IMG/VR virus record: IMGVR_UViG_3300018005_000013
Reading direction: 5' to 3' (one strand)
From: an uncultured virus (IMG/VR IMGVR_UViG_3300018005_000013)
Lineage: Duplodnaviria > Heunggongvirae > Uroviricota > Caudoviricetes
Length of the DNA: 20,000 nt
The position numbers and the translations under genes were made by a program. The notes under the pieces are model-generated. The model was given only the letters and a program-made list of their open reading frames with translations. It did no database searches and had not been told where the DNA came from. This document shows, in pieces, positions 1,279 to 19,394 of the stretch (position 1 is its first letter; each line of letters begins with the position of its first letter).

Positions 1279-1713
1279 TCACTCTCCATGGTTCAGGACG
1301 AGCACGGCGCGCAGGAAAAGGATGAACGCCCGCGCATCTGCCAGACTGGGCCTGGGCCGGAAGGGCGTGCCCCGGCACCACTTCTGGCGCGTGACCTTGA
1401 AAATCGGGCAGCGGTGGCACGGGTTCTTGGCACCCCTTTGCCAGTAGGTGTAGCAGAGCGGGCAGTTCCGCCCTGCCTGAACGACGACCTTGTCCTCCTT
1501 GAGCAAGCGCAGGATCACGCGCCACTTACGGATCGACTCGCGGATGGCCGGGTTAGGGATACGGGGCGGCCACATGCCCGCCACCTGGATCGTGTAGCTA
1601 CCATGTAGCCACGGCTGGCCCGCGGGGGCGTAGTGATAGATCGGAATGAAAATCAGGCGCTCGGCGCGCGATCGGCGGGTGGGTCGGTCCGAGCCGAAGG
1701 TCCTGGGGCTCAT
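1279..1713 (-). CDS. Hypothetical Cys-rich protein (144 aa)
   Basis: ATG 1713 overlaps the upstream stop (ATGA), SD GGGGAG; CPLC...CHRCP...C motif. Confidence 0.7.
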   Translation of the reverse strand: MSPRTFGSDRPTRRSRAERLIFIPIYHYAPAGQPWLHGSYTIQVAGMWPPRIPNPAIRESIRKWRVILRLLKEDKVVVQAGRNCPLCYTYWQRGAKNPCHRCPIFKVTRQKWCRGTPFRPRPSLADARAFILFLRAVLVLNHGE

Positions 1714-2351
1714 GCCAACTCCCCCGGAGACTGCATCTGGGGCTCCGGTTCGTGGTCGGGCGTGCAATGCAGGCAGTAGTCCGCCAACAGGTTGCCCTGA
1801 AGACCAGAGGCGGGCTCCTGGGCCGCGGCATAGAAGTCCGCAATCGGACGGTACTGCTCGCATTTCGCGCACCACCGGTCTAGCCGCTGGGGCGGGTACT
1901 GCCCGCCGACCCGCAGGATTCCGCCCGGCCCTTTGAAAATGAGGCCCGGCTCCCAATTCCCTGCGACCACTGTCTCGATGAGGTCGTACTGGACGAAGGA
2001 CGCGCCAACACTGTAGCTCGAGGTGGTCGGAACGCCCATGATGACATAGCGGCCCTGGGGCAGGACCCGGCGCAGCAGTTTCTTGGCCGCGTCCCGGCTC
2101 AAGGGCTGGCCGTCCGCGTCCGCGGCCAGCTTGGGGACGAGCAGCCGGACGGGCATGGCACCGGCCTTGCAAATCTTGCTCAGCCGCTCGCGGGACCTGG
2201 CCTTGTATTCTAGGCTCACGAGAGGGCGACAGGCGGGGCAGAACTTGGAGCCGCCGTGCGGCAGGTAGAGCGCCTGGCAGCGTTGGCAGTGGACCCTGAC
2301 CGTGCACCGGCGCACGGCTCTCGCCTCGAGGGGCGGGGCCGTAGTCACCAT
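1710..2351 (-). CDS. Hypothetical protein with multiple CxxC pairs (213 aa)
   Basis: CQRC, CPAC, CAKC, CLHC pairs; overlaps both neighbours. Confidence 0.7.
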   Translation of the reverse strand: MVTTAPPLEARAVRRCTVRVHCQRCQALYLPHGGSKFCPACRPLVSLEYKARSRERLSKICKAGAMPVRLLVPKLAADADGQPLSRDAAKKLLRRVLPQGRYVIMGVPTTSSYSVGASFVQYDLIETVVAGNWEPGLIFKGPGGILRVGGQYPPQRLDRWCAKCEQYRPIADFYAAAQEPASGLQGNLLADYCLHCTPDHEPEPQMQSPGELA

Positions 2352-2794
2352 TCGCTTCCGGCCAGCTTGTGCAGGTAGTCCATGGCCTCCGCCAGAGTCG
2401 GGAAGACGATGTCGGCGGCCTCGAGTACGAAGGCGTGCCAGTGCACGCTCGGGTTCTCCATCACGACGATTGTGTGCTTGCGCAGCATGTGCGCCCAGGC
2501 CAACTCCATCATGCAGCCAATGCTCACGCCCTTGGCCTCGCGCAGGTCCACGAGGACCACGTCCGCCAGGCCCACCATCCAGGCGTCGCGCTCCACAATG
2601 GCGTGGTTGGTAGAGACGGGGTTGCCGTAGCCGTGCGCCTTGAACTCCGTCTCCGTGCGCAGGTAGCCCTTGCCGGTCATCGGGTGCAGTATCTCGAAGT
2701 CCGCGCCGAGCATCCTGACGATGCCGTCGATGTAGGACACGACCTGCTCCCCCGTGAGCCCCGAAATCGGATGCGCCGTGTACAGTTTGAGCAC
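2345..2794 (-). CDS. Nucleoside 2-deoxyribosyltransferase / nucleotide N-glycosidase-like protein (149 aa)
   Basis: GTG 2794 after SD AGGGAGG; LYTAHP, DAWMVGLADVVLV and SIGCMMELAWA match the NDT/RCL-family pattern, including the catalytic Glu. Confidence 0.8.
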   Translation of the reverse strand: MLKLYTAHPISGLTGEQVVSYIDGIVRMLGADFEILHPMTGKGYLRTETEFKAHGYGNPVSTNHAIVERDAWMVGLADVVLVDLREAKGVSIGCMMELAWAHMLRKHTIVVMENPSVHWHAFVLEAADIVFPTLAEAMDYLHKLAGSEW

Positions 2795-2807
2795 GTTTGC
2801 CTCCCTA

Positions 2808-2996
2808 TCAGGCCGATCCCAGGACCACGCCAAGAGCCCACGCGACGGCCCCGACAATGGCCACGGTGAAAAGCAGTGTGAGCACGATCACCAGGCAGCC
2901 GCGGCCATTATCGTCCGCCGCCATGGAAATGGGGCCGAACAGCATGAGCGCGGCGACGAGTCCCAGGACGATCCAGGCAACGGTGTGGGCAATCAC
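2808..2996 (-). CDS. Small membrane protein, 2 TM (62 aa)
   Basis: GTG 2996 overlaps the upstream stop; SD GGAGAGG; two hydrophobic segments. Confidence 0.7.
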   Translation of the reverse strand: MIAHTVAWIVLGLVAALMLFGPISMAADDNGRGCLVIVLTLLFTVAIVGAVAWALGVVLGSA

Positions 2997-3169
2997 CGCT
3001 TCCTCTCCTTCCGGCGCTTGTGGGCACATCGGAAACACTCGCGCTCCCGTATCTCGCCGCCTACGATCACGACCCCGTGCGGGCGCACAACCGGCTTGCA
3101 CCCGCGCCCGGGGCAGCCCTTGCGCGTGTGGTAAATGGCCACGTTGGTCAGCATGTTGGCCAGCTTCAT
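2993..3169 (-). CDS. Small basic Cys-containing protein (58 aa)
   Basis: ATG 3169 overlaps the upstream stop; CPGRGC...CFRC. Confidence 0.6.
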   Translation of the reverse strand: MKLANMLTNVAIYHTRKGCPGRGCKPVVRPHGVVIVGGEIRERECFRCAHKRRKERKR

Positions 3170-3381
3170 TCGTCGCGCTCCCGGAAAAAGAACGTCCCAA
3201 GAATAAGTAGGCCCAGCAACCATAAGCAGACCAGCGCGGCGGGCAGCCAGATGGGAGTGAAAATCCAGAACCAGGACCAGTGCACGATGCCGAGTACCTT
3301 GGCTAGGACCAGAGCAAGCTGGATGCAGAACCAGCATCCGCCCAGCGGGCCGGAGTCGATGACAGCCTCGTCGGGCATCAT
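3166..3381 (-). CDS. Small membrane protein (71 aa)
   Basis: LAKVLGIVHWSWFWIFTPIWLP matches a common small phage/bacterial membrane protein pattern; ATGA coupling. Confidence 0.75.
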   Translation of the reverse strand: MMPDEAVIDSGPLGGCWFCIQLALVLAKVLGIVHWSWFWIFTPIWLPAALVCLWLLGLLILGTFFFRERDE

Positions 3382-3995
3382 CCCTGCCTCGCTTGCTCAG
3401 CCGCGCCCATCAGGTCCTTCGGGGCCAACTGCGCTCCGGTCTTCGGGTCTTGCCACCACGGCGGCGGCCCGTGGAGCGGGAAGATGTCCGCGCCCTTGGA
3501 GACGATATTGAGGACCTCAAGCAGGCCGGTGGCGAGCTTGTCGTCTACGTAGGTGTGAGTCCGCGCAAGCTCGTGGAGCGTCAGCCGGGCCGACTCAAGC
3601 CGGGCGTCGAGGTTGACCACCTCGTCCTCGAGCGCCGCGTTGTTCGCCAGGGCCTTGTGCTCCCGCTCCTGCGCCTCGGTCAGTCGCAGGGCCAGCGTGC
3701 CCATCCAGCGTTCCCTGCCCTCGAGTTCCAGGTGCGCCTTGCCGATGCGATCCAGAAGCGCCTTGTTGTCGGCCATGAGCGCCTCGGCTCGGCCTTTCCA
3801 GTCGTTGCCGCGCTCCATCGCCGCGGTGAAGTTCGCCCTGAGAACCTCCATCCCCGCCGCGGCTCGCTCGAGGGCGGCGACCCTCTCGCGCATGGCGGAC
3901 CCCATCCACTGGCCAATGTGGTCGGAGAGTTTCCGGCTACCGGGGTCGGCCAGCATTGCGTCCAAGTCGGGTCGAGTGTCCGTGTCCGATCCCAT
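3378..3995 (-). CDS. Coiled-coil hypothetical protein (205 aa)
   Basis: SD AAGGGAGG; Ala/Glu/Leu heptad-rich central region. Confidence 0.8.
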   Translation of the reverse strand: MGSDTDTRPDLDAMLADPGSRKLSDHIGQWMGSAMRERVAALERAAAGMEVLRANFTAAMERGNDWKGRAEALMADNKALLDRIGKAHLELEGRERWMGTLALRLTEAQEREHKALANNAALEDEVVNLDARLESARLTLHELARTHTYVDDKLATGLLEVLNIVSKGADIFPLHGPPPWWQDPKTGAQLAPKDLMGAAEQARQG

Positions 3996-4005
3996 GCTGC
4001 CTCCC

Positions 4006-4236: not shown

Positions 4237-4246
4237 GGCCGTCTGC

Positions 4247-4636
4247 CTACTCGGGCCTGGCCTGGCCGCCGAGGCGGTAGTAGGCCACGTCGCTCACGTC
4301 TAGGTCATACATGTGCACCGGCGGCTGCGTGGCGTAGAGCATCGCGTCGCTTTCGAGCATCTCGGCGGCGCGTCGGTGCTCCGTCATCTTCCCGTAGGCC
4401 TCCTGCATCCGGTTGTACGCCGCGGGATCGCCGTAGTTGACCACCAGGTCCGTGCGCTTGCCGCCTGTCACCTCGAACTCACGAAACTCGACCCGGGCCG
4501 TGTCCTTGAGACGGCTGACGGCCCCGGCGTACTCGCCCTGATAGAAGGCGATCCGATCCCGGTGGTACTGGGCCTCCGCCTTGGCAGCAGCGGCGATCTG
4601 GCCAGCGGTGAATCGAAAGACGTGCTTGTCCCTCAT
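4247..4636 (-). CDS. Hypothetical protein (129 aa)
   Basis: ATG 4636 after AGGGAGGGG, overlapping the upstream TGA. Confidence 0.8.
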   Translation of the reverse strand: MRDKHVFRFTAGQIAAAAKAEAQYHRDRIAFYQGEYAGAVSRLKDTARVEFREFEVTGGKRTDLVVNYGDPAAYNRMQEAYGKMTEHRRAAEMLESDAMLYATQPPVHMYDLDVSDVAYYRLGGQARPE

Positions 4637-4857
4637 TTCCCCTCCCTGTCTTTGACAACCTGGTAGGTCGTGCGCGGGTCTTCTTCCTCGGGCCGCAAGA
4701 ATCGGATGGCGGGCAGCATAGCAGCGTAGAGGCGGGCCAGCCGCCAGATTGTGAGCGGTGCCCTCCACCACGGCCCCATCCGGTCCAGGCGCACCAGGAA
4801 GGTCGGCCTGGGCGGCAGGGCCGCGTCCGTTCCGTCCCCAAGGTTGAAAATGGGCAT
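4633..4857 (-). CDS. Hypothetical protein (74 aa)
   Basis: SD GGGGAG; fills the gap between coupled genes. Confidence 0.65.
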   Translation of the reverse strand: MPIFNLGDGTDAALPPRPTFLVRLDRMGPWWRAPLTIWRLARLYAAMLPAIRFLRPEEEDPRTTYQVVKDREGK

Positions 4858-4861
4858 CAGG

Positions 4862-5696: not shown

Positions 5697-6173
5697 CTAC
5701 TGCGCGGGACGCCAGACGTACCGACCCCGCCGGTAGCGCGGGCGCAGCCCAGCCGCCCAGCGCCGGGCCTCCCGCACGATCCAGACCCGGTTGCGTGCCA
5801 GCCAGTTCCGGGCTCGGGTGTAATCTGTCCGCGCCCTCCGATCTTGCCCCCACCAGCTTTCGGCGCAGGCATGCGCGTGGTCCACGTCGGACATACACAG
5901 GTCCGCCACGAGCGCCGGAGCCAGGTCTACCGCGATCTTTCGCCAGCGGGCGATGGGAAAGGCGAAGATGCTGGTCTTGTGCTCGACCATGCCCTCCCCG
6001 TTGCGCTTGAGCGTGACCCGGGCCGTGGCCAGGCCAAAGTGCTCGGCCACGACCATATGCAGGCCCTCGTGCACGCGGGCGCAGCGGTTGCAGTGGCATG
6101 CGCCCACGCCGTAGCCCGCCTCGCTCCAAAGCAGGCGTGACCTATAGCGGGGGTTGTGCCGATGCGCCTTCAC
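5697..6173 (-). CDS. Basic hypothetical protein (158 aa)
   Basis: GTG start after GAGGAG; CHCNRC motif. Confidence 0.6.
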   Translation of the reverse strand: MKAHRHNPRYRSRLLWSEAGYGVGACHCNRCARVHEGLHMVVAEHFGLATARVTLKRNGEGMVEHKTSIFAFPIARWRKIAVDLAPALVADLCMSDVDHAHACAESWWGQDRRARTDYTRARNWLARNRVWIVREARRWAAGLRPRYRRGRYVWRPAQ

Positions 6174-6490: not shown

Positions 6491-6505
6491 GAATGATAAT
6501 CATTC
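6491..6505. promoter_or_regulatory. Perfect 7-1-7 palindrome GAATGAT-A-ATCATTC, Fur-box-like operator candidate
   Basis: Intergenic, immediately 5' of the SD of the 6477 gene; 14/19 match to GATAATGATAATCATTATC. Confidence 0.5.
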
Positions 6506-6544
6506 GCGCCTCGAATGAGGCAGCGGTATGACCGCCTGCCCCAA

Positions 6545-6823
6545 TTATCCCACCGCCTTCGTTCCCGGTTCCTCCGGGTCCCAGCCCTCGAGCTTGATCC
6601 AGTCGTGGAAGGCGCAGCCGTTCTCCCGCCCTGGGCAGACCACACTCGGGCTGACGATGCCGTCGGCAGCAATGTCGTGGTCGGAGAGCGTGCCAATGTG
6701 GCCATTCGGGCAGCAAAAAAGGGCCGTCCGCTGGCCTTCCCCCAGCGGGCCGGGCACGCGGAACTTCCGGCCTCCTGCCCACGTCCCTGGCCGCAGTTCC
6801 TTGTCGTAGGGAATGATAATCAC
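6545..6823 (-). CDS. Small Cys/His protein, DUF6527-like (92 aa)
   Basis: FCCPNGH...VSPSVVC...CAFHDWI pattern; GTG start overlaps the upstream TGA. Confidence 0.6.
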   Translation of the reverse strand: MIIIPYDKELRPGTWAGGRKFRVPGPLGEGQRTALFCCPNGHIGTLSDHDIAADGIVSPSVVCPGRENGCAFHDWIKLEGWDPEEPGTKAVG

Positions 6824-7368
6824 CCGGGCCTCGCGTTAGTCGGCGGCTGGAAGAAGGGCGAGGCCTGGCAGTTGTGCTTGTGGGCCCGGTTGCGCTCGAC
6901 GGTGTCCGACCCGTCCGGCACCGTGGCGTCGCAGATGGAGCAAATCAGGTCATCCGAGCCCTCGTAGGCGTGCCAGCAGGTTTCCCGCAACCCCTCCGCG
7001 AGGCGCTGCGCCCGCTTCTCGAGGTCGCCGACGGCCTGGGCCTGGCGCTCGACCAGTTCCGTAAACACGCGCAGCGTCATGCCGCCCCGGCGAAAGAACT
7101 CCACTCCGTTGAGAATCCACTGCTTGAGCGTGCCGATGCCCTGGGAGGGCGCTATGACCGTACTGGGCTGCCTTGGGTCGCCCGACAGCGGCGCACGCAG
7201 GCTCCAGTCCTTCGGGACCTCGTGGCGAACCGCCTGCGCCCCCGCCAGTAGCGCGTCCAGGTCCAGCGCGTGGCGTTTGACCTCTTCCTCGAAGGCATGG
7301 GCCGCCTTCGTGTCCAGGTGGCCGATCTCCCCGGCGGTGACGAGTAGCTGGATCACATGCTCATTCAT
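6820..7368 (-). CDS. Hypothetical protein with C-terminal C2HC Zn site (182 aa)
   Basis: CSIC...HKHNC; overlaps both neighbours. Confidence 0.75.
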   Translation of the reverse strand: MNEHVIQLLVTAGEIGHLDTKAAHAFEEEVKRHALDLDALLAGAQAVRHEVPKDWSLRAPLSGDPRQPSTVIAPSQGIGTLKQWILNGVEFFRRGGMTLRVFTELVERQAQAVGDLEKRAQRLAEGLRETCWHAYEGSDDLICSICDATVPDGSDTVERNRAHKHNCQASPFFQPPTNARPG

Positions 7369-7675: not shown

Positions 7676-7859
7676 TTTTTCCTCCCTTCGCTACGTCCGC
7701 GGCCTTCGCCCTTTGAATAACGTGGTCGAACTCGCCAGCGCGGAGCGCCTTGAGCATGCACCTCAAGCACATGCCGCCGTTCACGCTGCCCTTCTTGTGA
7801 CAGCGCGGGCACGGGGCATTCATGTCGATCCGAACCACGCCGACGGATTCGTCTGGCAT
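7662..7859 (-). CDS. Small Zn-binding protein (65 aa)
   Basis: ATG 7859 (TGATG overlap); CPRC...CLRC. Confidence 0.7.
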   Translation of the reverse strand: MPDESVGVVRIDMNAPCPRCHKKGSVNGGMCLRCMLKALRAGEFDHVIQRAKAADVAKGGKSGRP

Positions 7860-8320
7860 CAGTGGTCGATCCTGTCCGCGTAAGGTCCGCTCGTATAGGG
7901 GTTGCCGGTCTCTTTCCGCTTGCTGTGAAGCTCCCACGCAAGCGCCATCAGGGAGCCGGGCGACTTGATGGTCAGGCCTCGCTCGTGCATCGCCGTGGCC
8001 GCGTCATGCAGTTCGTCCGGCGTGATCCCCGTCTGCTCGAGGTCGTGCAGCCCCTCGATCCAGTGGCCCCGCTCGCTTTTCGCGGGCTCGCGTTTGATAA
8101 TTTGCTCAAAGGCCTCTGCCAGCGGTACCAGATACTCCGGGGCCCAGCGCCCAGCCTTGGGGCTGTCGTGCGCCTGCGCCAGGATCGCCAGGCCGCGCTT
8201 GCGGAAGGCCTCGACGCCGCCCTCGGAGTTCGTGACGTTGACGGTGCTGAGCTTGCGCCGCGTGCGTCCCAGCGCCTCGTCCAGGGGATTCTCCGGTCCA
8301 CCACTAACTTCGTTGGTCAT
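7859..8320 (-). CDS. Hypothetical helical protein (153 aa)
   Basis: ATG 8320 after GAAGGTGG; C-terminal GITPDELHDAATAM...TIKSPGSL is only loosely like the C-terminal helical domains of phage replication proteins, so no function is assigned. Confidence 0.7.
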   Translation of the reverse strand: MTNEVSGGPENPLDEALGRTRRKLSTVNVTNSEGGVEAFRKRGLAILAQAHDSPKAGRWAPEYLVPLAEAFEQIIKREPAKSERGHWIEGLHDLEQTGITPDELHDAATAMHERGLTIKSPGSLMALAWELHSKRKETGNPYTSGPYADRIDH

Positions 8321-8345: not shown

Positions 8346-8657
8346 TCAGTCACGGGGGTCCACCTGCACGTCGCCATAATTGACCTGCGAGTAGTCCCGT
8401 CCCTTCGCCGTGGCAATGCGGGTCGCCGGATGCTGCGACCCAATGGCTGGCCCAATGGCGCGGGCATACCACATCCACCAGGAGAACGCACCCGCTGCCC
8501 GCTGGTGACGGCCAGCGAAGGTGCGCCGGATCACCGGCTCTACCTCGATGCCAGCCTCGTCTTTGATAATCTTGGCCAGCCTGAGCGCCAGCGCCGTCGG
8601 CCCACGGCGGAGCGTTGTGGATTGGATGCCCAGCTTCGCGTCCAGCGGCTCGCCCAT
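8346..8657 (-). CDS. Hypothetical protein (103 aa)
   Basis: SD GAGGAGG; starts just after the upstream stop. Confidence 0.75.
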   Translation of the reverse strand: MGEPLDAKLGIQSTTLRRGPTALALRLAKIIKDEAGIEVEPVIRRTFAGRHQRAAGAFSWWMWYARAIGPAIGSQHPATRIATAKGRDYSQVNYGDVQVDPRD

Positions 8658-9322: not shown

Positions 9323-9850
9323 CTATCCTCTCCCGCTCGGATCGCGGACCACCTCGCCCTCGAGGATGTCGGTGGCGTGGCGGCTCGGCGCGGGCAGGAA
9401 ACTCGACCCGTCCGGCAGGTGGGCCTTCACAAGCGCGCCGACGGTCGTGGGCGGCTTGCCCTTGATGAGCCACTCAAAGTGGCTCAGGAATACGTCCTCA
9501 AAGCTCAGCAGGCCAAAGTCCACGGCCTCAAACTGGGACTTGAGCCAGTAGTGGAGCGCCCGATAGGTCGAGCGCGCCGACTGCTCCCAGAGTTCCGCCT
9601 GCGACTTGGGCGGGCGGTAGCGCCCGTGCCGCCAGCCGCCGGTGTTTCGCTTTTTCGGCGGCTCCTGGATGAGCAGAGTCACGCTGACGGTGCGCATCGC
9701 CTTGCCGACCTCTTTGGCGAAGCGGACGTTGACTCGGTGCTCCTCGAAGTCCTCGGCGAATTGGACGCCTCGAGCGCCCGCGGCGATGAGAATCTTGCGG
9801 ATGGCTTCCTTAGATCGTTCGACCGGAACGGCGGTTCCTTCGTAGGCCAT
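9323..9850 (-). CDS. Conserved phage hypothetical protein (175 aa)
   Basis: YEGTAVPVERSKEAI...RALHYWLKSQFEAVDFG..SFEDVFL resembles a widespread uncharacterised phage family. Confidence 0.8.
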   Translation of the reverse strand: MAYEGTAVPVERSKEAIRKILIAAGARGVQFAEDFEEHRVNVRFAKEVGKAMRTVSVTLLIQEPPKKRNTGGWRHGRYRPPKSQAELWEQSARSTYRALHYWLKSQFEAVDFGLLSFEDVFLSHFEWLIKGKPPTTVGALVKAHLPDGSSFLPAPSRHATDILEGEVVRDPSGRG

Positions 9851-9857: not shown

Positions 9858-10400
9858 TCATAGGTCCAGCGGTGGGTCGATCCCGGCGGCCTTCAGCGCG
9901 TCCACCAGCAGCCGGAACTCCGAGAGGATTGACCGGGCGTCCTCCTTGCCGATCAGGTTGTAGAGGTAGGACTCGCTCAGGAAGGGGTTTAGCTCATCCC
10001 CCTTCTGGTACATGCCGTGCGTATTGGCCGTGGTCCATCCCGGCTTCATCTCGGGCGACCACGTCGCCAGCCAATGCAGGAGCTTCACGACTGCATGGAC
10101 CACGTCCTCGAGCTTGGCCGCCTCCGCGCCCCGGCGCTCTAGCCACTCGAGCAGGACGGGGTTGGCATGAAAATCGGCAATTGCCCGCACATCCTCTAGC
10201 TTCTCGTGTAGCGGAACGGCGGCGTACAACTCACGCCAGTCCGCCTGCGGCCGCGCGCCGTCCTCGGCCACGGGGCGGAAGACCTCACAAACGCAGGTGA
10301 GCACGCCGCAGGAGTGATAATCGCTGTCCTGTGTGTGCTGGCCGTAGACGTGGCCGCAGGCGCAGCGGGTCAGCCTCGTGGGCAGCGGTCTAGGGTTCAT
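9858..10400 (-). CDS. Hypothetical protein with N-terminal Cys/His Zn module (180 aa)
   Basis: ATG 10400 after AAGGAGG; CACGH...H...C...CVC. Confidence 0.75.
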   Translation of the reverse strand: MNPRPLPTRLTRCACGHVYGQHTQDSDYHSCGVLTCVCEVFRPVAEDGARPQADWRELYAAVPLHEKLEDVRAIADFHANPVLLEWLERRGAEAAKLEDVVHAVVKLLHWLATWSPEMKPGWTTANTHGMYQKGDELNPFLSESYLYNLIGKEDARSILSEFRLLVDALKAAGIDPPLDL

Positions 10401-10770: not shown

Positions 10771-11075
10771 AGGAACGCGCCTCCCGCCACCGTGTACAAC
10801 AGGAAGCCGATGCCCGCCAGGACGGCCAGGAACACGACCGCGCCGACGATCACTGCTAGGTTGCTCGGCTGGGGCTGGCCCGGGTCATTCGAGTCCGGTG
10901 CGGCGAGTCGTTTCATGTCACAGACGGGGCAGCGCACGCCCCAGTAGGGCGCGCCGTTATAGGCGTTATACATGATCTTGATGTCGAACGGCTCCGGTTC
11001 AAAGACCGTGCCGCAAAAACGGCAAAGGAGCGCGACGGGCTCGGGAATTGGGGAGCGAGTGATAATCCGGCTCAT
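10767..11075 (-). CDS. Zn-ribbon protein with C-terminal TM anchor (102 aa)
   Basis: ATG 11075 after AAGGGAGG; CRFC...CPVC; hydrophobic C-terminus. Confidence 0.75.
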   Translation of the reverse strand: MSRIITRSPIPEPVALLCRFCGTVFEPEPFDIKIMYNAYNGAPYWGVRCPVCDMKRLAAPDSNDPGQPQPSNLAVIVGAVVFLAVLAGIGFLLYTVAGGAFL

Positions 11076-11276: not shown

Positions 11277-12935
11277 TTACAACCCCAGCGGCGATTGATA
11301 ATCCCGGTCGAGCCGGACCCGGGCAATCTGGGCGTAGGCCTCGAGTAGTTCAATCCCGAGGGCGTAGTCCCAGCCCGCCAGCAGGGCACCCAGCATCTCC
11401 GAGCCGGTCCCAGCAAAGGGAACCAGGATGCGGCGCGGCGCGTAGGCCGCCGGGGGCAAGAGCAGGCTTGCGAGCCACTGGCAAAGCGCCACTGGTTTGA
11501 TGGTCGGATGCCCGTTGCGGCGGCACGGAACGTCGCGCCCATGGTCGTCTTTGTGGGTCAGCGTGTGCAGGCCGCCGCAGTTGAAGCAGGGGATGCGGCC
11601 CAGCAGGCCCTCCTCCCGCTCGGCGGTGTCCGCCTTGGCCTGGTAGCGGACCGGGTCGGCATCCTCCGGTCCCCAGCCGAAGCGCGGGAAGAAGCGACTG
11701 GCCGGGCCCGAGTCCGCATACATCTCCGCAGGCGTGCCCTTGCCCCGGAAGTCCGTGACGCCGGAGACGCGCTCGCCGTCGTGATGGTCCTCCGGGTCAT
11801 ATAGACCGCTGCTCCGGCGCTCGCCCGCTTGCTCGTCCAGCGTCGCCACGGGACAGCCGTCGGCGCACTCCCAGACCTCGACCGTCTCCATACCCTCGGC
11901 GTCGCCGTAGGTCCTCATCACCGTGCCGCCAGGCCGAGTCTCCGCGCCGTAGGCCGTCCCTTGGTTGCCCTCGGCGTCCGACCCGCTCCTGCCCTTCTTG
12001 ACGGAACCGTCAGGTCTACCGGGAACGCGAGCCGTGCCGAGACATCTGCATTCGGGCAGGTGCACCAGGACGAAGTTGGGTGGCCAGCGGCCAGACCCCA
12101 GCGACCCCCGCCGCTGCGAGGCGTTGCCGAACATAGAGGCGCTGGGCGTCGTGGTCTCTGTGATCCCGGGCCGATGGTTCGGATCATTGGGGTTGATCCC
12201 GACCCGGCCTGCGTCCACGTTGATCGCGCCCGCGCCGGTGCGCGTGATCGACTCGAAGGGTTTGCCGTCATAGGGCCTTTGAAAAACGATGATCGGCTCG
12301 AGGGCAGGCTTGAGGGCCTGCATCCCATAGCGGTGCCCGGCCCATGCCTTGGCCAGGTCGGTCACGGGAGCGTGGATGGCCGACAGGTCAATGGTTTCCG
12401 CCTGGTCCATGTACCGACCGCCGCGCATGTCATGCTTCGGCGTGGCGGCACGGCCCGTCGTGTGCTTCCCGACCACCGGCTGTTCCTCGCCCGCCGCCCG
12501 GTCGATCTGGTTGTCGATCCGCGTGGCCTTCGGAAAGCCTTGTGCGTACAACCAGCCGAAGATGGTCGGGTGAATGATAAAACCGGCGTCCTCAATCGCG
12601 CAGGCAAGCCTATGCCAGCCGCGGCTGCTTGCGAACGCCATGCCGAACGCGCCAGGCAGCAGGTGCTTGCCCAGCGCCGCCCAGACCTCGGGCTGGAAGG
12701 CCACGTCACCGCCGTCCCACGTCTGGCCCATGAATCCATGGCTCACGCGCGAGTAGGGCGACGCGCCCCTGCCAAACGTGTCCACCTTGACAGGAGCCGC
12801 TCCGGGCGAGCCAAAGCGTTTGACAATCGAAGTCAGGTGATAGGGCGGATCGCAGAGGAGCGCATGGAACGGCGGGCCCTCGTAGTCCGCCGCCCAGGCG
12901 AGCACATCGCCCGTCGTGACCTCCCAGGGGCTCAC
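11277..12935 (-). CDS. DNA amino-methyltransferase (N6-adenine/N4-cytosine), beta class (552 aa)
   Basis: N-terminal catalytic DPPY; WLYAQGFPK, ALKPALEPI, GRWPPN, HPTIKP; C-terminal SAM motif VPFAGTGS; GTG 12935 overlaps the upstream TGA. Confidence 0.92.
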   Translation of the reverse strand: MSPWEVTTGDVLAWAADYEGPPFHALLCDPPYHLTSIVKRFGSPGAAPVKVDTFGRGASPYSRVSHGFMGQTWDGGDVAFQPEVWAALGKHLLPGAFGMAFASSRGWHRLACAIEDAGFIIHPTIFGWLYAQGFPKATRIDNQIDRAAGEEQPVVGKHTTGRAATPKHDMRGGRYMDQAETIDLSAIHAPVTDLAKAWAGHRYGMQALKPALEPIIVFQRPYDGKPFESITRTGAGAINVDAGRVGINPNDPNHRPGITETTTPSASMFGNASQRRGSLGSGRWPPNFVLVHLPECRCLGTARVPGRPDGSVKKGRSGSDAEGNQGTAYGAETRPGGTVMRTYGDAEGMETVEVWECADGCPVATLDEQAGERRSSGLYDPEDHHDGERVSGVTDFRGKGTPAEMYADSGPASRFFPRFGWGPEDADPVRYQAKADTAEREEGLLGRIPCFNCGGLHTLTHKDDHGRDVPCRRNGHPTIKPVALCQWLASLLLPPAAYAPRRILVPFAGTGSEMLGALLAGWDYALGIELLEAYAQIARVRLDRDYQSPLGL

Positions 12936-13560: not shown

Positions 13561-13878
13561 TTATAGCTTGGCCCGGAAGTAGCTGCAGCGGGTGACGAAG
13601 GTCGCCGCATCCGCCGCCTGGCACACAACAAAAAACTGGGCGGCAAAGATGCAATGGTCGGCCCGGTGGCTACCGTCTGGCAGGATGTGCATGTGGTCGC
13701 AGCGGCGGCAAAGGCAGCGCGTGCGCCGCATCTCATCGGCCTCGCGGTCCGTCCACGTCAGCGCGCCATAGTGCTCCTCGAGGACCGGCTCGGGCAGCCC
13801 CGGAACCCGCTCCTGGGGTCCCAGCGCCCCGTTCTCCGCCCCGTTCTCCTCGCGGTCGAGTTTCGCTTCCTCACCCAT
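13561..13878 (-). CDS. Cys-rich hypothetical protein (105 aa)
   Basis: ATG 13878 after AGGAGGG; CLCRRC...C...C...C; this is the real 3' part of the tracked 396-aa ORF. Confidence 0.7.
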   Translation of the reverse strand: MGEEAKLDREENGAENGALGPQERVPGLPEPVLEEHYGALTWTDREADEMRRTRCLCRRCDHMHILPDGSHRADHCIFAAQFFVVCQAADAATFVTRCSYFRAKL

Positions 13879-14686
13879 CGGTTGGACCCTCCTGATTCTC
13901 GGCGACCACGCGCCGGAGCAACGTAGCCAGCATACCCCAAGTCGCCGGATTGTCCGGCACGGTCGAGCGTTTGATAATCCGTGAGCGCCCATTCGGGTAG
14001 ACGACCACCAGGCCGTAGGGGTCGGGAATCTCGCCCGGCCTGAGGACGCCCTTGGGACAGGCGAAGTAGAACTCGGAGCAGTTGTAGGCCGACTTGGCCG
14101 TCTTTTCCGGGTGCGCCCGCTCGCGCATGAAGTCCGAGCGGCTGACCTTGATCTCGTAGCCCACGCGCTTGTAGCCCCCCGAGGGGAAGCACGAGAGCGC
14201 CAGCGCGTCCATCTGATGCGACACCAGGCCCGGTGCCATGCCGCCATGGCGTGGATCAACCCAGCGCGGCACCACGACCGTCGGCTCGGCCACGAACACC
14301 CAGTCGGGCGGCTCGTGCCGGGCGGCCAGGGCACGCATGACCCGGGCCGACTCGCCCTCGAGGCTGGCAACGCGCCGGGCCTGGGACTTGGAGAGGAAGT
14401 CTGGCGGCAGTCCGCGGAGCGCCTCGAGCCCGGCTGGGCTGACCCGGTAGACGAGCCGGAATCCGCCCGACCAATCGTCCTGCGTGGGACTATGGAAGGA
14501 CTCGATCCACCCCATCCGCTTGCAGGCCATGAGCGTGCGCAGGTTGAGCGGACCCTCCTGCGTGAAGTGGGTGCCCTTCTCGTCCGAGAATATGGCGCGG
14601 TTGCCCCAGGCGATGCAGTAGGGAGTCGGCCCCTCGGACAGACGTTTGAGCAGTTGGGCTTGTGGGGCTGTCGGTTTGGCTGGCAA
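13871..14686 (-). CDS. MmcB-like PD-(D/E)XK nuclease with N-terminal extra domain
   Basis: MDALAL...GYEIKVSRSDF..E...PEK...EFYFACP...EIP..YGL; TTG 14686 after AAGGA (alternative start ATG 14734). Confidence 0.8.
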   Translation of the reverse strand: MPAKPTAPQAQLLKRLSEGPTPYCIAWGNRAIFSDEKGTHFTQEGPLNLRTLMACKRMGWIESFHSPTQDDWSGGFRLVYRVSPAGLEALRGLPPDFLSKSQARRVASLEGESARVMRALAARHEPPDWVFVAEPTVVVPRWVDPRHGGMAPGLVSHQMDALALSCFPSGGYKRVGYEIKVSRSDFMRERAHPEKTAKSAYNCSEFYFACPKGVLRPGEIPDPYGLVVVYPNGRSRIIKRSTVPDNPATWGMLATLLRRVVAENQEGPTDG

Positions 14687-14745
14687 TGATAATCCTTGAG
14701 ACAGGAGAGCCGGGCGCTCGGGGAGCCGCGCCATACTTTTACCCG

Positions 14746-14965: not shown

Positions 14966-15121
14966 CTACCCCCGTGTCGGCTGCGGGTTTCGGCTCTTGC
15001 TGCACCGCAGGCAAATCTCGAATCCCAGGATGCTGTCATCCGGGAGTATGCGCACGTAGCTCCACTGGTGCCCGAAGAGGCGGCACCACAGCTTTTGCAG
15101 GGTCCAGCGCAGGTCGATCAT
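14966..15121 (-). CDS. DUF1660-like small phage Zn-binding protein (51 aa)
   Basis: Manually translated: MIDLRWTLQKLWCRLFGHQW...ICLRCSK; ATG overlaps the upstream TGA. Confidence 0.75.
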   Translation of the reverse strand: MIDLRWTLQKLWCRLFGHQWSYVRILPDDSILGFEICLRCSKSRNPQPTRG

Positions 15122-15417
15122 GGGCCCACGGCCTCATAGGTCTGCTCAAAGATGTCGGGCTTGCACGGGTACTTCTCGCCATGGACGCCAGTGATAATCC
15201 AGTCGCCCGGATCGACGCGGTGGCCGCCCTCGAGCGTGCCGATCCACCAGAGCACGCGGACGTGCACGTCCCGGCCCTGGGCCTCCGCGTCCACGTCCAG
15301 CCCCCAGGCGGGCACGCCCGGGGAGCCATACGGCAGAACGCCCTCGGGCCAGGGCTGGTTGTCGGGGAAGAATTGCTCCGCCTCGACGATCACCGGCTTC
15401 TTACGGAACTTGGCCAC
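15118..15417 (-). CDS. Conserved small phage protein (KKPV.EA..GDWII..YPCKPDIF family), copy 2
   Basis: KFRKKPVIVEAEQF...TLEG...PGDWIITGVHGEKYPCKPDIFEQTYE. Confidence 0.85.
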   Translation of the reverse strand: MAKFRKKPVIVEAEQFFPDNQPWPEGVLPYGSPGVPAWGLDVDAEAQGRDVHVRVLWWIGTLEGGHRVDPGDWIITGVHGEKYPCKPDIFEQTYEAVGP

Positions 15418-15418
15418 G

Positions 15419-15715
15419 TCAAACTCCCTTGAGCGGGCTGTACAACTCGGCGAACTTGGGGCCGCGCACGAGGTAAGGTTTTTTGTCGCCGGGGCCTTTG
15501 ATAATCCAGTCGCCTGTGTACGCGACCATCGGGCCGTGGTTGCCGTCGTTCACGGACAGGGCTGGGGCCATGTCTTGCCCGGGCCCGCCCGCCGGGACGC
15601 GGGCCACGTCCTTGCCGATCCAGACGGTGATGTCGTCGGCGGACTTGTCGGACCCGTCGAACTGAACGGCCTCGACGATCAGGCCGGGCAGGTTCTTGCG
15701 CATGAACTTAGGCAT
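15419..15715 (-). CDS. Conserved small phage protein, same family, divergent copy 1
   Basis: KFMRK...IVEAVQFDG...GDWIIKG....YLVRGPKFAELY; SD GAGGAGG. Confidence 0.8.
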   Translation of the reverse strand: MPKFMRKNLPGLIVEAVQFDGSDKSADDITVWIGKDVARVPAGGPGQDMAPALSVNDGNHGPMVAYTGDWIIKGPGDKKPYLVRGPKFAELYSPLKGV

Positions 15716-16463
15716 ATCGGCCTCCTCGGATGTGTCTCATGGCGCTGTCCTCGGCGGGCGAGGTGAGGTGCCATTGGTGGTAGACCGCGTAACCGGCTGG
15801 ACGAAGGTCACGGCGCACGCCGCCCTTGGGCATCCGGGCCTGTTCCTTGGCGAAGATGCCGGTCTCGTCCAGGCCAAACTGCGACTCGGGCGACAGGGGC
15901 GTCTTCCAGAACTCGAGCCAGCCCGCCCGCGTGTTGCTCGTGAACATGACCGTGTGCAACCAGCCGTGGGCACTCCGGTTCGGGTGTGGGCAGGCCCCGT
16001 GCCATGCTTCCCAGCCGGGCAGCTTGGCGAACTGTTCAAAGTCCGTCCCTAGCCAATGGTTGCCCGGATCGTCCAGCGCATCCGTGGCCTGGCCGTCCAG
16101 CGCGTAGACGATGACAGTGGTTCGGTGATTGCCGTCCTGCTTAGCCAGGGACCACTCGATCCCATGGTACGGCACCAGGATGTCGTTCCAGGTAATGAAA
16201 ATCATATCGCCAGTGCACGCAGGCCAGGCCGCGTTGACGGCCAGGCTGCTGTTGCGCATCAGGCCGCCCCGGGGTCTGTGGGCGATGTACTTGATCTCCA
16301 CGCCTTCGAGCGGCTCCGGCCCTATTGCCCTCGCCCAGGCATTGCCGCCGTCATCGGCAATGATAATCTCGTCGGGCATGCGCGACTGGCAGAGAAGTGT
16401 GCGCAGGGCGCGGCGGGCCGACACAGCCCGGTAGCGCCCGCCCAGGATGACGCTGACCCTCAT
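15708..16463 (-). CDS. Glycosyltransferase, GT-A fold / family 2-like (251 aa)
   Basis: MRVSVIL...ALRTLLCQSRMPDEIIIADDGG...AVNAAW..CTGDMIFI, FGLDE, VYHQWH; ATG 16463 overlaps the upstream TGA. Confidence 0.85.
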   Translation of the reverse strand: MRVSVILGGRYRAVSARRALRTLLCQSRMPDEIIIADDGGNAWARAIGPEPLEGVEIKYIAHRPRGGLMRNSSLAVNAAWPACTGDMIFITWNDILVPYHGIEWSLAKQDGNHRTTVIVYALDGQATDALDDPGNHWLGTDFEQFAKLPGWEAWHGACPHPNRSAHGWLHTVMFTSNTRAGWLEFWKTPLSPESQFGLDETGIFAKEQARMPKGGVRRDLRPAGYAVYHQWHLTSPAEDSAMRHIRGGRYA

Positions 16464-17350
16464 CCGCCCACTTGGCCAAGCATGGCGGCGGCGTCTGCGG
16501 CATCCTCGGGGTAGAGGCATGTCTTGCCCTTGTTCTCGCCGGTCAGTACGATGACGCGGTCAAACCCGCCGGGTGCGCCCGGATCACGGACAATAGCCTC
16601 TTTCGGCTGCCCGAGCAGGTCCCGGGGCGGCCCGATCATGTCGGACACGCCGACGCGGACCGTCGGCGGCGCAGCGTCCGGTCCGGGGACGTGCTTGCGT
16701 GGAGCGGAGGGCTGAGCCGTAACGGCCCCTTGCTTGACCGAGTCCTCGAGGTCCTTGACCATGCCTTTCAGGGCCGTGGCGATGGCGGGGTGCATCCCCG
16801 GCTTTTGCGCCTTGGCCTCCGCGTAGCCTCGGGCAGTCCCGGCGCTGGCGTCCACGACGCCGCCGTTCACAATGGGACTGCAGCGCAGCCATTCGCGGGC
16901 GTACTTTTCGGCCAGGCCAATTTGCGTGCGCGACGCGGCAATCCTGCGCATGCCCTCCATCGCCTTCTCGCCCTCAGCCTTCGCTTCCGCCTCGGGTAAG
17001 TCCTGGCCGTCGTGGTTCCGGTGCAAGACGCGCCGGATGATGCTCTCCACGTCCTCTTGGTCCATCCGCTGGCGGGCCATGCGCTCCATGTGGTACTGGT
17101 GGTACAGGAGCACGAACTTGCCCACGCCCTCATTCGTCACCCAGGCGCGCCGCATCTTCGGCTGCTCCTCGTGCAGGAGTTGCTTCGTGTAGGCGTCTAT
17201 CTGGGCGTGGCCTTTGAAAATCGCTACGGCGATCCCGAGCAGCACCTCGGGGGTGTCGAGGTCGCTGCAAATCGCCACGCCGGTGAAGCCGTGCCCGATC
17301 CGAGCGACCGTCCTCCGCCCACTTTGGAGCAGGCGGTAGGTGATGTCCAT
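16460..17350 (-). CDS. Hypothetical protein (296 aa)
   Basis: ATG 17350 after AGGGAGGAG; between gmd and the glycosyltransferase; no motif recognised. Confidence 0.8.
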   Translation of the reverse strand: MDITYRLLQSGRRTVARIGHGFTGVAICSDLDTPEVLLGIAVAIFKGHAQIDAYTKQLLHEEQPKMRRAWVTNEGVGKFVLLYHQYHMERMARQRMDQEDVESIIRRVLHRNHDGQDLPEAEAKAEGEKAMEGMRRIAASRTQIGLAEKYAREWLRCSPIVNGGVVDASAGTARGYAEAKAQKPGMHPAIATALKGMVKDLEDSVKQGAVTAQPSAPRKHVPGPDAAPPTVRVGVSDMIGPPRDLLGQPKEAIVRDPGAPGGFDRVIVLTGENKGKTCLYPEDAADAAAMLGQVGG

Positions 17351-17367
17351 GGCTCCTCCCTGTCCAT

Positions 17368-18618
17368 TCAATTGCCGAGCGGCGGCAGATGCTTGGGATC
17401 GACCAGTTCCACTCGGAGCGGCTCAGGCTGTTGGAGCGCCGCTTGCTCCATTTCCGCCTTGACCATGATTTCGGTCAGCCATTTCATGCCCACGACCGGC
17501 TTCCAGTTCAGGACCGCCTCGGCCTTGCTTGCGTCGGCGCGGAGAACCGGCACGTCGGCCCAGCGCATCAACGTCCCGTCGCTCTCCACATACTGCCAAC
17601 TTTGGTCCAGCCCGGCGGCGTCCATGCAGGCCAGCAGGAAGTCCCGGACGGTGTGGGACTCGCCGGTTCCGACCACGTAGTCGCCAGGAAGGTTCTGTTG
17701 CAGGATGCGCCACATCACGTCCGTGTACTCGGGCGCATATCCCCAGTCGCGCGCGGCCGACAGGTCGCCCAGGATGATCTTCTTCTGGAGCCCGAGCTTC
17801 ACCCGCACCACGCCTCGGGCAATCTTGCGCGTGACGAACTCGAGGCCGCGCCGCGGGCTCTCGTGATTGAATAAAATGCCGGTCGCCACATACATGCCGT
17901 AGCTCTCGCGGTACACGCGGGCCAGCGCGTGGGCCGCCAGCTTGGCTGCGCCGTAGGGGCTGCGCGGGCGCATTGGGCTGTTCTCGCTCATGCCGCCCGT
18001 GTCCTTTACCTGCTGGGGCCAATCGCCCGGCCCCGGCTTCGGCATCTCCCCAAACATCTCGGACGTGGAGGCTTGATAAATGCGGATGTCGGGGCACGGG
18101 ACCACGGTGCCGCGACCGTTGGCCGCCGTTGCAACCCAGCGCCGCTCCACGAACGGGCGGACCGCCTCGAGCACGTTCAGGAATCCCAGGGCGTTCGTCT
18201 CAAATGTCGCCCGGGCCTGCGCCCAGCTTGCGCCTACATACGACTGCGCCGCAAGGTTGTAGATTTCGTGGGGCATCGTCGCGCATACCGCCCCGCTCAC
18301 ACTGCCCGGGTCCGTCACGTCGCCCGCCAGCAGGGTCAGCCGCGGATCGTTGATAATTCCACGCAGGTTCTCGAAGTTCAGATGCGAGGTGCGGCGCACG
18401 AGGCCATAGACCCGGTAGTTGCGGGTAATAAGTTGCTCCGCCAGATAGGACCCGTCCTGGCCGGTGATCCCGGTAATGAGAGCGCGCCGCTCCGAATAGG
18501 ACGGCGGCTCGCCGTAGGGCTGGGGCTGGGGCTTGGGCTCCTGGGCCAAGGCCTCTACAATCGACTTGTCCAGCAACGCCGCGCCTGCCAGGTTGACAGC
18601 GTTCAGTGAAGTCAGCAT
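17368..18618 (-). CDS. gmd: GDP-mannose 4,6-dehydratase (416 aa)
   Basis: ALITGITGQDGSYLAE, EIYNLAAQS, YQASTSEMFG, PRSPYGAAK (YxxxK), GILFNHESPRRG.EFVTRKI, RDWGYA; ATG 18618 after AGAGGGAG. Confidence 0.95.
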   Translation of the reverse strand: MLTSLNAVNLAGAALLDKSIVEALAQEPKPQPQPYGEPPSYSERRALITGITGQDGSYLAEQLITRNYRVYGLVRRTSHLNFENLRGIINDPRLTLLAGDVTDPGSVSGAVCATMPHEIYNLAAQSYVGASWAQARATFETNALGFLNVLEAVRPFVERRWVATAANGRGTVVPCPDIRIYQASTSEMFGEMPKPGPGDWPQQVKDTGGMSENSPMRPRSPYGAAKLAAHALARVYRESYGMYVATGILFNHESPRRGLEFVTRKIARGVVRVKLGLQKKIILGDLSAARDWGYAPEYTDVMWRILQQNLPGDYVVGTGESHTVRDFLLACMDAAGLDQSWQYVESDGTLMRWADVPVLRADASKAEAVLNWKPVVGMKWLTEIMVKAEMEQAALQQPEPLRVELVDPKHLPPLGN

Positions 18619-18678
18619 ATTGGCTCCCTCTTGCCCCGCGCTTGCCGTGGCGGCCCGTAGCGCCCCGAGCATGGCCAA

Positions 18679-18687
18679 ATTGTACCA
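18679..18687 (-). promoter_or_regulatory. Extended -10 element (TGGTACAAT) for the leftward gmd operon
   Basis: TGn+TACAAT about 60 nt upstream of the gmd ATG. Confidence 0.6.
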
Positions 18688-18727
18688 CAGACGGCAGGCC
18701 CACATCCTCGCCCCGCCTGGCCCCGGC

Positions 18728-18766
18728 CTAGCCCCGGCAAAAGGGTACCGAGTGAGCCGGGGCTAG
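18728..18766. repeat. 11-bp perfect inverted repeat CTAGCCCCGGC-N17-GCCGGGGCTAG
   Basis: Arms at 18728-18738 and 18756-18766, between the divergent promoters. Confidence 0.75.
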
Positions 18767-18816
18767 CCAACCGGGCCAGAATCGCCATACAGGGGACCGG
18801 CCCGGCATTTACCCCC

Positions 18817-18844
18817 TTGACAAGTATTCCGTAAGTGGTATAGT
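18817..18844 (+). promoter_or_regulatory. Strong sigma70-type promoter TTGACA-N16-TATAGT with extended -10
   Basis: Perfect -35 at 18817-18822, TGGTATAGT at 18836-18844, followed by AGGAGG and ATG 18891. Confidence 0.8.
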
Positions 18845-18890
18845 TACGGCAGTTGAACCAATCGCCAAAAGGCGTCCAATAGGAGGTACC

Positions 18891-19394
18891 ATGGGCATCC
18901 AACTTCTTCACCCTCACGACCCAGACACCACCTGCAAACACAAGGGCCACTTCACCTGCGGCTGCGGCCAGGAAATCATCGGCTCGAGGTACGTGGTTGC
19001 CGAGCATCTCCGCCACTGCAACGGCGGCGACTTCCATTCAGCAGGCCCCGACCGCCTTGATAATCCGCTCGTCTGCACCTGCGGGTTCAAGGCTTTCGGC
19101 GGCCCCGGATCGCTTGCCGCGCACCGCGCTGCCTGCCATGACAGCGACGAGGAGCGGCCCGGCCATCTGGACGGCATCGAGGCCCAGCGCGACGCGCTCA
19201 GCGGGCTCGAGTTGGAGGGCGGCAACTTCCACGGCGTCCCGACCCCCAGCTCCGTGCCTGAGGATGTTCGCTTCGGCGAGTTCGGCTGCGGCAACTGCCT
19301 CTACGCTTCGGTCGAGTGCTGGCACGGGTCCAAGTATGGCCCCGCCTCCGCGCAGGGCCAGCCGTCCTGCAAGTCCTACGTCTACTTCGATTGA
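18891..19394 (+). CDS. Multi-Zn-finger-like hypothetical protein (167 aa)
   Basis: SD AGGAGG; two CxCG-x(10-11)-AxHxxxC units plus C-terminal CGNC...C...C. Confidence 0.8.
   Translation: MGIQLLHPHDPDTTCKHKGHFTCGCGQEIIGSRYVVAEHLRHCNGGDFHSAGPDRLDNPLVCTCGFKAFGGPGSLAAHRAACHDSDEERPGHLDGIEAQRDALSGLELEGGNFHGVPTPSSVPEDVRFGEFGCGNCLYASVECWHGSKYGPASAQGQPSCKSYVYFD

Follow-up and report, generated by a model that had tools for sequence, protein, structure and literature searches.

A one-strand, A+T-rich word selected in the genomes of unrelated phages and its possible Chi-type role

The 20,000-nucleotide stretch of DNA analysed here, referred to as the window, is part of an 84,635-bp contig of an uncultured Caudoviricetes virus (IMG/VR record IMGVR_UViG_3300018005_000013) that carries small phage-type genes, a DNA methylase gene and sugar-nucleotide genes. 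In our gene model 42 genes run leftward up to position 18618, three rightward genes follow, and a field of co-oriented copies of the heptamer TGANAAT extends over both gene blocks (Table 1). Half or more of the sequence words sampled from the window were present in three runs, all of them peat metagenomes, one of which may be the source of the contig.

The word in the window

A sequence-only reading of this DNA had reported 25 copies of TGANAAT on the plus strand and none on the minus strand. Our recount returned the same numbers, all 25 start positions and the split by middle base (14 with T, eight with A, two with G and one with C) being exact. A C follows the word in 21 of the 25 copies, in line with the "most" of that reading, and GANAAT lacking the leading T occurs seven times on the plus strand, in agreement with the earlier figure of about seven, and ten times on the minus strand. 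Base composition predicts 0.9 and 1.0 copies on the two strands, which matches the earlier estimate of roughly one, and Markov models predict 1.4 (order 2) and 2.0 (order 3) per strand. No word of the window ranked above TGANAAT in unbiased searches, its best form being TGANAANC (27:0) and its core TGANAA (35:0). In the window alone, the depletion of the minus strand is not significant (0 versus 0.65).

An artefact of codons or codon pairs, or the avoidance of a restriction site on one strand, would be the simplest explanation of such a field. Consistent with a coding origin, 19 of the 25 sites read ATT-NTC-A in a single frame (three more lie in a second frame, two between genes at 6494 and 14687 and one in a plus-strand gene, as had been described), and a non-polar phage genome (G006, see below) shows a mild sense-strand excess of 45 versus 33.6. 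On the other hand, the 23 copies within genes compare with 4.8 ± 1.9 and 5.9 ± 2.1 in synonymous shuffles (maxima 12 and 13 per 1000), which upholds the earlier statement that codon usage does not suffice, and under the dicodon-preserving shuffle proposed beforehand 22 copies were observed versus 6.4 ± 2.2, with none of 500 shuffles as high. ATT was chosen in 20 of 21 Ile-[IFLV]-[IKTNM] contexts versus 55 of 226 elsewhere. The permissive tripeptides themselves are doubled in the window (21 versus 9.8) and enriched in the related genome G450 (89 versus 56), with no enrichment of two control classes, and the word holds in genes of the opposite strand (see below). Saturation is incomplete: three of eight second-frame opportunities and none of 22 third-frame opportunities are taken. 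As the main signal is a 2-5-fold gain and not a loss alone, restriction avoidance fares no better; the codon or codon-pair artefact is refuted, and we regard this whole class of explanations as barely credible.

The closest relative of the window is G450, with 14 protein matches in conserved order, and a second relative, G001, has the same gene arrangement as the window near the dehydratase gene and where the gene direction switches. Contigs from four of 13 runs differ from the window at few positions, none of them a motif base, at a depth too low to inform. Two motif sites 320 bp apart lie within a 36-base repeat (6491-6526 and 6811-6846, 78%), of which the copy at 6494 could be a degenerate duplicate of the beginning of the following gene. 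On the plus strand, a further sigma-70-type match (18593-18621) overlaps the start of the dehydratase gene and is antisense to it.

Table 1. Copies of the word and other features of the window
Feature	Positions	Strand	Context
Field of 25 co-oriented TGANAAT	1398..19064	+	soft consensus W-W-TGANAAT-C; mean gap 736 bp, range 147-1649
TGAAAAT	1398..1404	+	Ile-Phe-Lys, minus gene 1279-1713; kept in G450 orthologue
TGAAAAT	1647..1653	+	Ile-Phe-Ile, gene 1279-1713
TGAAAAT	1934..1940	+	Ile-Phe-Lys, gene 1710-2351; G450 keeps site, N base changed
TGAAAAT	3258..3264	+	Ile-Phe-Thr, gene 3166-3381
TGAAAAT	4845..4851	+	Ile-Phe-Asn, gene 4633-4857
TGATAAT	6494..6500	+	intergenic, within short inverted repeat upstream of gene 6142-6477
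TGATAAT	6814..6820	+	Ile-Ile-Ile, start of gene 6545-6823
TGAGAAT	7110..7116	+	Ile-Leu-Asn, gene 6820-7368
TGATAAT	8095..8101	+	Ile-Ile-Lys, gene 7859-8320
TGATAAT	8564..8570	+	Ile-Ile-Lys, gene 8346-8657
TGAGAAT	9787..9793	+	Ile-Leu-Ile, gene 9323-9850
TGAAAAT	10168..10174	+	second frame Asp-Phe-His, gene 9858-10400
TGATAAT	10315..10321	+	second frame Asp-Tyr-His, gene 9858-10400
TGATAAT	11060..11066	+	Ile-Ile-Thr, gene 10767-11075
TGATAAT	11296..11302	+	second frame Asp-Tyr-Gln, methylase gene end; absent from G450
TGACAAT	12821..12827	+	Ile-Val-Lys, methylase gene; kept in G450
TGATAAT	13972..13978	+	Ile-Ile-Lys, gene 13871-14686; absent from G450
TGATAAT	14687..14693	+	intergenic, between ribosome-binding site and TTG start, gene 13871-14686
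TGATAAT	15192..15198	+	Ile-Ile-Thr, gene 15118-15417
TGATAAT	15499..15505	+	Ile-Ile-Lys, gene 15419-15715
TGAAAAT	16196..16202	+	Ile-Phe-Ile, glycosyltransferase-like gene 15708-16463; absent from G450
TGATAAT	16361..16367	+	Ile-Ile-Ile, gene 15708-16463; G450 keeps site, N base changed
TGAAAAT	17215..17221	+	Ile-Phe-Lys, gene 16460-17350; kept in G450
TGATAAT	18351..18357	+	Ile-Ile-Asn, GDP-mannose dehydratase gene; G450 keeps site, N base changed
TGATAAT	19058..19064	+	Leu-Asp-Asn, + strand gene 18891-19394; genome orientation unchanged
DNA methyltransferase	11277..12935	-	tested as word reader, rejected
PHROG 5429 "DNA repair" protein	13871..14686	-	weak reader candidate
GDP-mannose 4,6-dehydratase	17368..18618	-	heads leftward block; same position in G001 and G450
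Sigma-70-type promoter match	18817..18846	+	at switch between leftward and rightward gene blocks

The word in other phage genomes: strand, spacing and turnover

Among 57 loci of the methylase family two stood out, and the whole records to which they belong (G001 and G002, each bearing terminal repeats) are polar over their entire length, with TGANAAT at 37:3 and TGGNAAT at 52:2 in G001, and TGANAAT at 73:12 and TGATAAT at 44:0 in G002. The major-capsid family of G001 gave 39 loci, from which 21 records were counted and 16 taken whole. Polarity was found in G450 (130:2), G451 (30:2 and 59:9), G453 (43:8 and 71:17) and G452 (43:16) and was weak in G455 (49:27) and G454 (21:14), the other ten of the 16 whole records being non-polar. 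Beyond the window the word family WTGRNAATC is therefore clear in six phage records and weak in two; in an unbiased search the top polar words of G001, G002, G450, G451 and G453 and the second of G452 were members of the WTGRNAAT(C) family, TGG variants dominating in G001, G451 and G453.

Phages that carry the word need not be close relatives. G002 has only 5-6 genes in common with the G001 group, and on the capsid tree the polar label (7 of 17 rows) takes five changes, at least two of them forced by strong branches, and is no more clustered than in shuffles (191 of 500). The G+C content of polar records is 52-66% (at least 57% in the strongest), and some records of 51-57% are non-polar. In 145 further loci of at least 4 kb the word was hinted at only in copies of G001 and G002 and in the short contigs L123, L147 and L262, and none of the prophage regions of seven sampled chromosomes was convincingly polar (G275 weakly, 13 versus 8.6). 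The chromosomes were sampled from the phylum of G046, a genome that encodes a related methylase and is presumably of the Chloroflexota, as we judge from its RNA polymerase sequence.

Some of the searched records have words of another kind. The non-polar G006, G461 and G457 share the mildly polar AGCCGC/ATNAGCC (G461, 26 versus 5.3 expected and 8 in reverse; G006, 49 versus 18 and 21 in reverse), which may reflect the signal of a different host or an Ala-Ala codon pair, and loci L027, L029, L040 and L014 have strong words of their own (CTCNGAG 37/37 and 35/35, TAGTNAC 16/16, CTGTGNG 24/3).

The whole genomes also revealed what the polarity follows, a check that the sequence-only reading had suggested: it is the genome strand and not the coding strand. 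Oppositely transcribed genes hold 14 copies in the genome orientation (2.3 expected) versus none in G450, 19 copies of TGRNAAT (4.5 expected) versus two in G001 and 18 (9.2 expected) versus five in G453, the corresponding counts of G452, G454 and G455 being uninformative; for the window contig, the test to the right of 18891 rests on these relatives' genomes. The word is antisense to the major operons in every polar record. No polarity switch point was found in the circular-mapping G001 and G002, and 5-kb bins are flat in G001, G002, G450, G451 and G453, with no clustering toward the ends of the records and no site cluster marking an origin, pac or other special locus.

Spacing obeys a rule of its own. 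Mean gaps range from 0.57 to 1.34 kb among the polar genomes, and for 635 sites in seven genomes both short gaps (<100 bp, 28 versus 76.5 expected) and long gaps (>3 kb, 11 versus 21.8 expected) are scarce, G453 alone being without the short-gap deficit. The latter was not seen in control words (54 versus 62) or non-polar genomes (41 versus 44), and the dead zone between co-oriented copies ends at ~100-150 bp. Wrong-way copies are purged in G001 (3 versus 14) and G450 (6 versus 24) and marginally so in G002 (24 versus 41 by codon shuffle, 24 versus 28 by dicodon shuffle); no purge was seen in G451, G452 and G453, and wrong-way sites are not excluded from the vicinity of right-way ones. In G002 a 9.9-kb gap in the word (G002:C1:81908-91823) extends across the terminase region and the gene of a TET-associated glycosyltransferase and includes three wrong-way copies; taken alone, this gap is not significant.

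As to conservation, which the sequence-only reading had proposed to look for in relatives, six of nine aligned window sites are kept in the G450 orthologues, three of them with a changed middle base, and more distant polar pairs retain only 3-8 of 17-53 sites, indicating that density is conserved as positions turn over. The shuffles and the opposite-strand genes of the relatives together bear out the proposal that an oriented signal is superimposed on coding DNA. The word WTGRNAATC, which reads ATTNYCAW on the strand that carries the terminase and the major operons, is a polar signal under selection at the DNA level. Its sequence and spacing rules are new, and the selection is strong enough to alter codons and tripeptides proteome-wide.

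These rules bear on an operator network of a regulator (Fur half-sites, stoperators or -10-only promoters), the first two of which had been raised in the sequence-only reading. The Fur box has a 7-1-7 consensus whose left half matches the word as it occurs in G002 and the window, and the site at 6494 is the only one with a partial palindrome, a short one close upstream of gene 6142-6477 that we take to match the Fur box centre. However, in three genomes neither a second half-site nor any other element is found up to 60 bases from the word, its orientation is independent of transcription, the TGG variants that dominate in three phages do not fit a Fur box, and the promoter match of the window at 18817 is canonical. 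Nor are sites clearly enriched between genes (2/28, 5/89, 13/169, 6/89 and 10/114, and 15/97 in G002, with intergenic fractions of 4-9%). The Fur and stoperator options are thus unsupported, and we hold a regulator of any kind to be very unlikely. Likenesses to a DnaA box, an IHF site, an FNR half-site, an extracytoplasmic function (ECF) sigma factor -35 element and a rolling-circle nick site were set aside, given the lack of a second element and the misfit of the TGG variants.

Candidate readers among phage genes

The methylase of the window, for which the word had been offered as a possible modification target, was rejected as the reader: 42 other records with this methylase family have no clear polarity, and the two most skewed of them are flat for the TGG form.

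Packaging proteins would provide a reader if the word marked dispersed, oriented terminase start sites or one-strand virion nick sites of the kind found in phages tf and T5. Its antisense orientation to the major operons in all polar records is in keeping with this, and a footprint of ~100 bp, the length of DNA wrapped by a small terminase, would fit the dead zone. All 14 nick sites of phage tf lie on one strand (PMC3517423). By contrast, the polar phages have two unrelated small-terminase types, each of which also occurs in one non-polar phage (G006 and G467), the large terminase of G455 belongs to a different class, neither nuclease candidate was found in G002, and the word is several-fold denser than the tf sites, which leaves a packaging or nicking mark unlikely. 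One weak reader candidate of the window, the PHROG 5429 protein, which we read as a winged helix joined to a PD-(D/E)XK nuclease, was not found in the polar G002 and is present in the non-polar G006. Similarly, a HerA-like ATPase of G001 with winged-helix repeats was set aside, its only homologue being in the non-polar G006.

Another candidate role is lagging-strand priming in one-way (rolling-circle) replication, with a primase that would initiate at the YCA end of ATTNYCA roughly once in every Okazaki fragment. The mean gaps are near the length of an Okazaki fragment, few gaps exceed 3 kb, and the ATTNTCA strand is the G-rich strand in G002. An 8-base primase site is described for phage NrS-1 (PMC8718748). 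Yet the dead zone ends at ~100-150 bp and not at fragment length, and the genes do not follow: G002 and G455 each encode a primase and a DnaB, and G453 a DnaC-like ATPase, whereas no primase, helicase or polymerase was found in G001 by Pfam, PHROG or reading, nor in G450 by a partial scan (47 of 132 proteins directly, most other long ones being homologous to scanned G001 proteins). Primases of the G002 type also occur in the non-polar G458 and G462, no shared cognate primase limited to word carriers was found, and the G002 helicase had no match at E ≤ 1e-25 in 401 genomes. A host DnaG acting as reader should leave a signature in the chromosome, and the sampled chromosomes show little. All told, priming seems to us an improbable role. 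Neither G001 (112 kb, rated complete) nor G450 (96 kb, scanned as above) yielded an integrase.

A Rad52/DdrA-like annealing protein comes closest to tracking the word: no other family is present in each of the four near-complete polar records and missing from all ten non-polar capsid-family records. Pfam and PHROG scans named no partner exonuclease in the polar records with this protein (G450 and G453 scanned in part). Its predicted model (predicted local distance difference test, pLDDT, 48) lacked the quality needed for a fold search, and sequence comparison revealed no solved relative. As a reader it was rejected in a prospective test that is described below.

None of the phage genes, those for primase, terminase, methylase and recombinase included, follows the distribution of the word. 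As it is common to unrelated phages that have no suitable gene in common, we consider it likely that a host protein reads it, and the reader is probably a direction-sensitive machine of the host. The host of the window phage is probably a member of the Chloroflexota, and the other word-carrying phages probably have their hosts in this phylum too. The G001 group and G002 alike have host leads to Chloroflexota, both endolysins resemble Chloroflexota clusters (scores 0.82-0.89, leads only), and a Dehalococcoidales bin is the source name of one homologue of a G001 virion protein.

Two further features of these phages may be recorded. A 2578-residue protein of G001 adjoining the portal gene (G001:C1:63342-71078) has a repeated GGPGSGHFGH motif between unrelated domains, with shorter versions in G450-G453 and G455. 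TTAA is absent from the window, from G450 (0 versus ~103 expected in genes) and from G451 (0 versus 49), nearly absent from G001 (2 versus 48) and low in several non-polar records too; this scarcity suggests that a host restriction site is being avoided, and its distribution among the records is not that of the polar word.

A possible Chi-type role and comparison with known systems

Given the precedent of phages MD8 and LLS and the case for a reader on the host side, we rank a Chi-type role first, with a probability of about 0.35: the reader would be a host end-processing helicase-nuclease of the AddAB/RecBCD type and the word its Chi. Such an enzyme would enter a phage DNA end from the sole available direction (a rolling-circle tail or a free packaging end), meet the word within ~1 kb, cease degradation and pass the 3' tail to RecA or to the phage annealing protein, a handover that could save or build concatemers. 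If packaging were headful, ends could lie anywhere and sites would be needed everywhere. One Chi trait, an asymmetric word enriched in one orientation, is present (25:0, 130:2, 37:3 and 73:12 in the window, G450, G001 and G002). The differing replication modules and small terminases of the polar phages, the scattered label on the capsid tree, the Chloroflexota leads for both groups and the annealing protein of the four near-complete polar records also support this role, as do the lack of a polarity switch, the independence of transcription, long frames of the helicase-nuclease type in two of five candidate host genomes and a weak same-sense excess on the G-rich strand of chromosome G244 (detailed below). 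Phages MD8 (32:0) and LLS (20:3) display a comparable one-strand excess of a Chi read by the host enzyme (PMC12315714), and Chi-type words are hard to predict from chromosomes, and chromosomal counts can miss them (bioRxiv 10.1101/2021.07.08.451572).

Several observations weigh against the Chi-type role. First, none of 251 chromosomes of the presumed host phylum (a tally that includes four unpublished genomes, used only there) comes near the word density of the phages, and four chromosomes with high test-to-control ratios are non-polar (62/60, 50/54, 26/40 and 28/20). Of seven more chromosomes listed site by site, two were followed: G244, in contigs picked for concordance, has ATTNTCA at 50 versus 21 on the G-rich strand and 24 versus 19.5 on the opposite strand, at a rank of only 120 among 20,480 patterns, and G259 has no signal (rank 6147). 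An AddAB-type nuclease was not found in G244. Second, Pfam finds the annealing protein in the non-polar G004 and G030 too, and in the prospective test none of ten newly found carriers of this protein was polar; nearly all of these carriers are A+T-richer, and they probably have other hosts. Third, the Chi words of E. coli, Pseudomonas and S. aureus are G-rich, and those of LLS, MD8 and P1 cluster near genome ends, on both strands in P1 (PMC12315714; bioRxiv 10.1101/2021.07.08.451572). The present word is A+T-rich with a soft consensus, unlike the named Chi words, and its even spread along genomes is no Chi trait. Finally, Chi predicts neither the 100-bp dead zone nor the purge of wrong-way copies in G001 and G450.

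Other chromosomal results are in keeping with at most a weak trace of the word in the sampled candidate hosts. The order to which G244 belongs has low word densities. All-plus strand listings in the 251-genome count were discarded as an artefact because a control word behaved alike. Skewed G-rich words were seen in G197:C1:1-100000, G179:C1:1-60000 and G283:C1:1-100000 (TGTGGGT 21/0, GGNTGTG 31/0 on one strand and GCTGGTGG 28/5) and could be these chromosomes' own Chi or FtsK-orienting polar sequences (KOPS).

The purge and the dead zone are better explained by a KOPS-like loading site, from which a ring translocase of the host (an FtsK paralogue whose gamma domain is altered, or an uptake motor) would pump the genome one way, into the cell or through the septa of a filamentous host; a second site less than 100 bp away would add nothing. 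Three of five candidate hosts (G259, G283 and G046) have two FtsK-gamma genes, and the gamma recognition helix departs from the canonical one in three of eight domains (L429, L430 and L433; from G244, G143 and one G259 copy), a match made post hoc. KOPS words also have a soft consensus with a central N (PMC8190038). Nonetheless, KOPS converge on a terminus and no polarity switch was found in G001 and G002, the complete chromosome G143 has 25 TGATAATC in 3.8 Mb with weak polarity, the purge is missing from G451, G452 and G453, and wrong-way sites are tolerated near right-way ones, all of which makes KOPS-like loading rather unlikely. A separate reading, in which the word is neither Chi nor KOPS but marks where a still undescribed DNA motor of GC-rich Chloroflexota hosts loads, and in which unrelated phages have convergently tiled their whole genomes with it, one way and at least 100 bp apart, for cell entry or filament passage, is possible, if doubtful.

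The word is best described as a putative signpost functioning like Chi or KOPS, with assignment to neither family. Literature searches, mainly of papers outside subscription journals, found no Chi-type word for Chloroflexota and no clearly related description of the word in phages. Any mechanism has to account for the dead zone and the one-way purge, both of which can be measured. The display of the word at up to 130:2 offers a ready bait with which the enzyme could be isolated and its specificity determined, and the word may help to group uncultured phages by host lineage.

The sequence of the word resembles a Fur half-site, and oriented sites within genes are likewise known from the stoperators of mycobacteriophage L5; the orientation of stoperators is that of transcription, and a Fur site requires two halves, neither of which applies here. 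DNA uptake sequences are chromosomal and on both strands, whereas the present word is phage-borne and polar, and KOPS are less dense than this word. Unlike KOPS, it has another sequence, does not converge on a terminus, is far denser and is not prominent in the sampled chromosomes; the scarcity of wrong-way copies resembles KOPS in two genomes. KOPS and SpoIIIE recognition sequences (SRS), read by FtsK and SpoIIIE, are similar to it in polarity, in a free central base and in independence of gene direction (PMC8190038). The uptake sequences of Pasteurellaceae and Neisseria also gather inside genes and roughly double the encoded tripeptides (PMC2817400). The nick sites of tf, T5 and phiKMV-like phages form a short one-strand consensus along the genome (PMC3517423), at ~1 per 3 kb within one phage group in tf versus 1 per 0.6-1.3 kb in unrelated phages here, where any nicks would be putative. 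The 7-8-base site of the NrS-1 primase-polymerase could similarly start primers ~1 kb apart (PMC8718748); no such enzyme is common to the polar phages, two of which show no primase. The nearest parallel to the Chi-type role are the Chi arrays of LLS (E. coli) and MD8 (P. aeruginosa), which are likewise short, asymmetric and dense one-strand phage words and are read by a host enzyme. Those of LLS, MD8 and P1 are fixed G-rich octamers near the ends of phages mostly without a recombination module (PMC12315714; bioRxiv 10.1101/2021.07.08.451572), whereas the word described here is A+T-rich, soft and evenly spread, keeps a 100-bp dead zone, is carried by phages with an annealing protein and has a putative reader.

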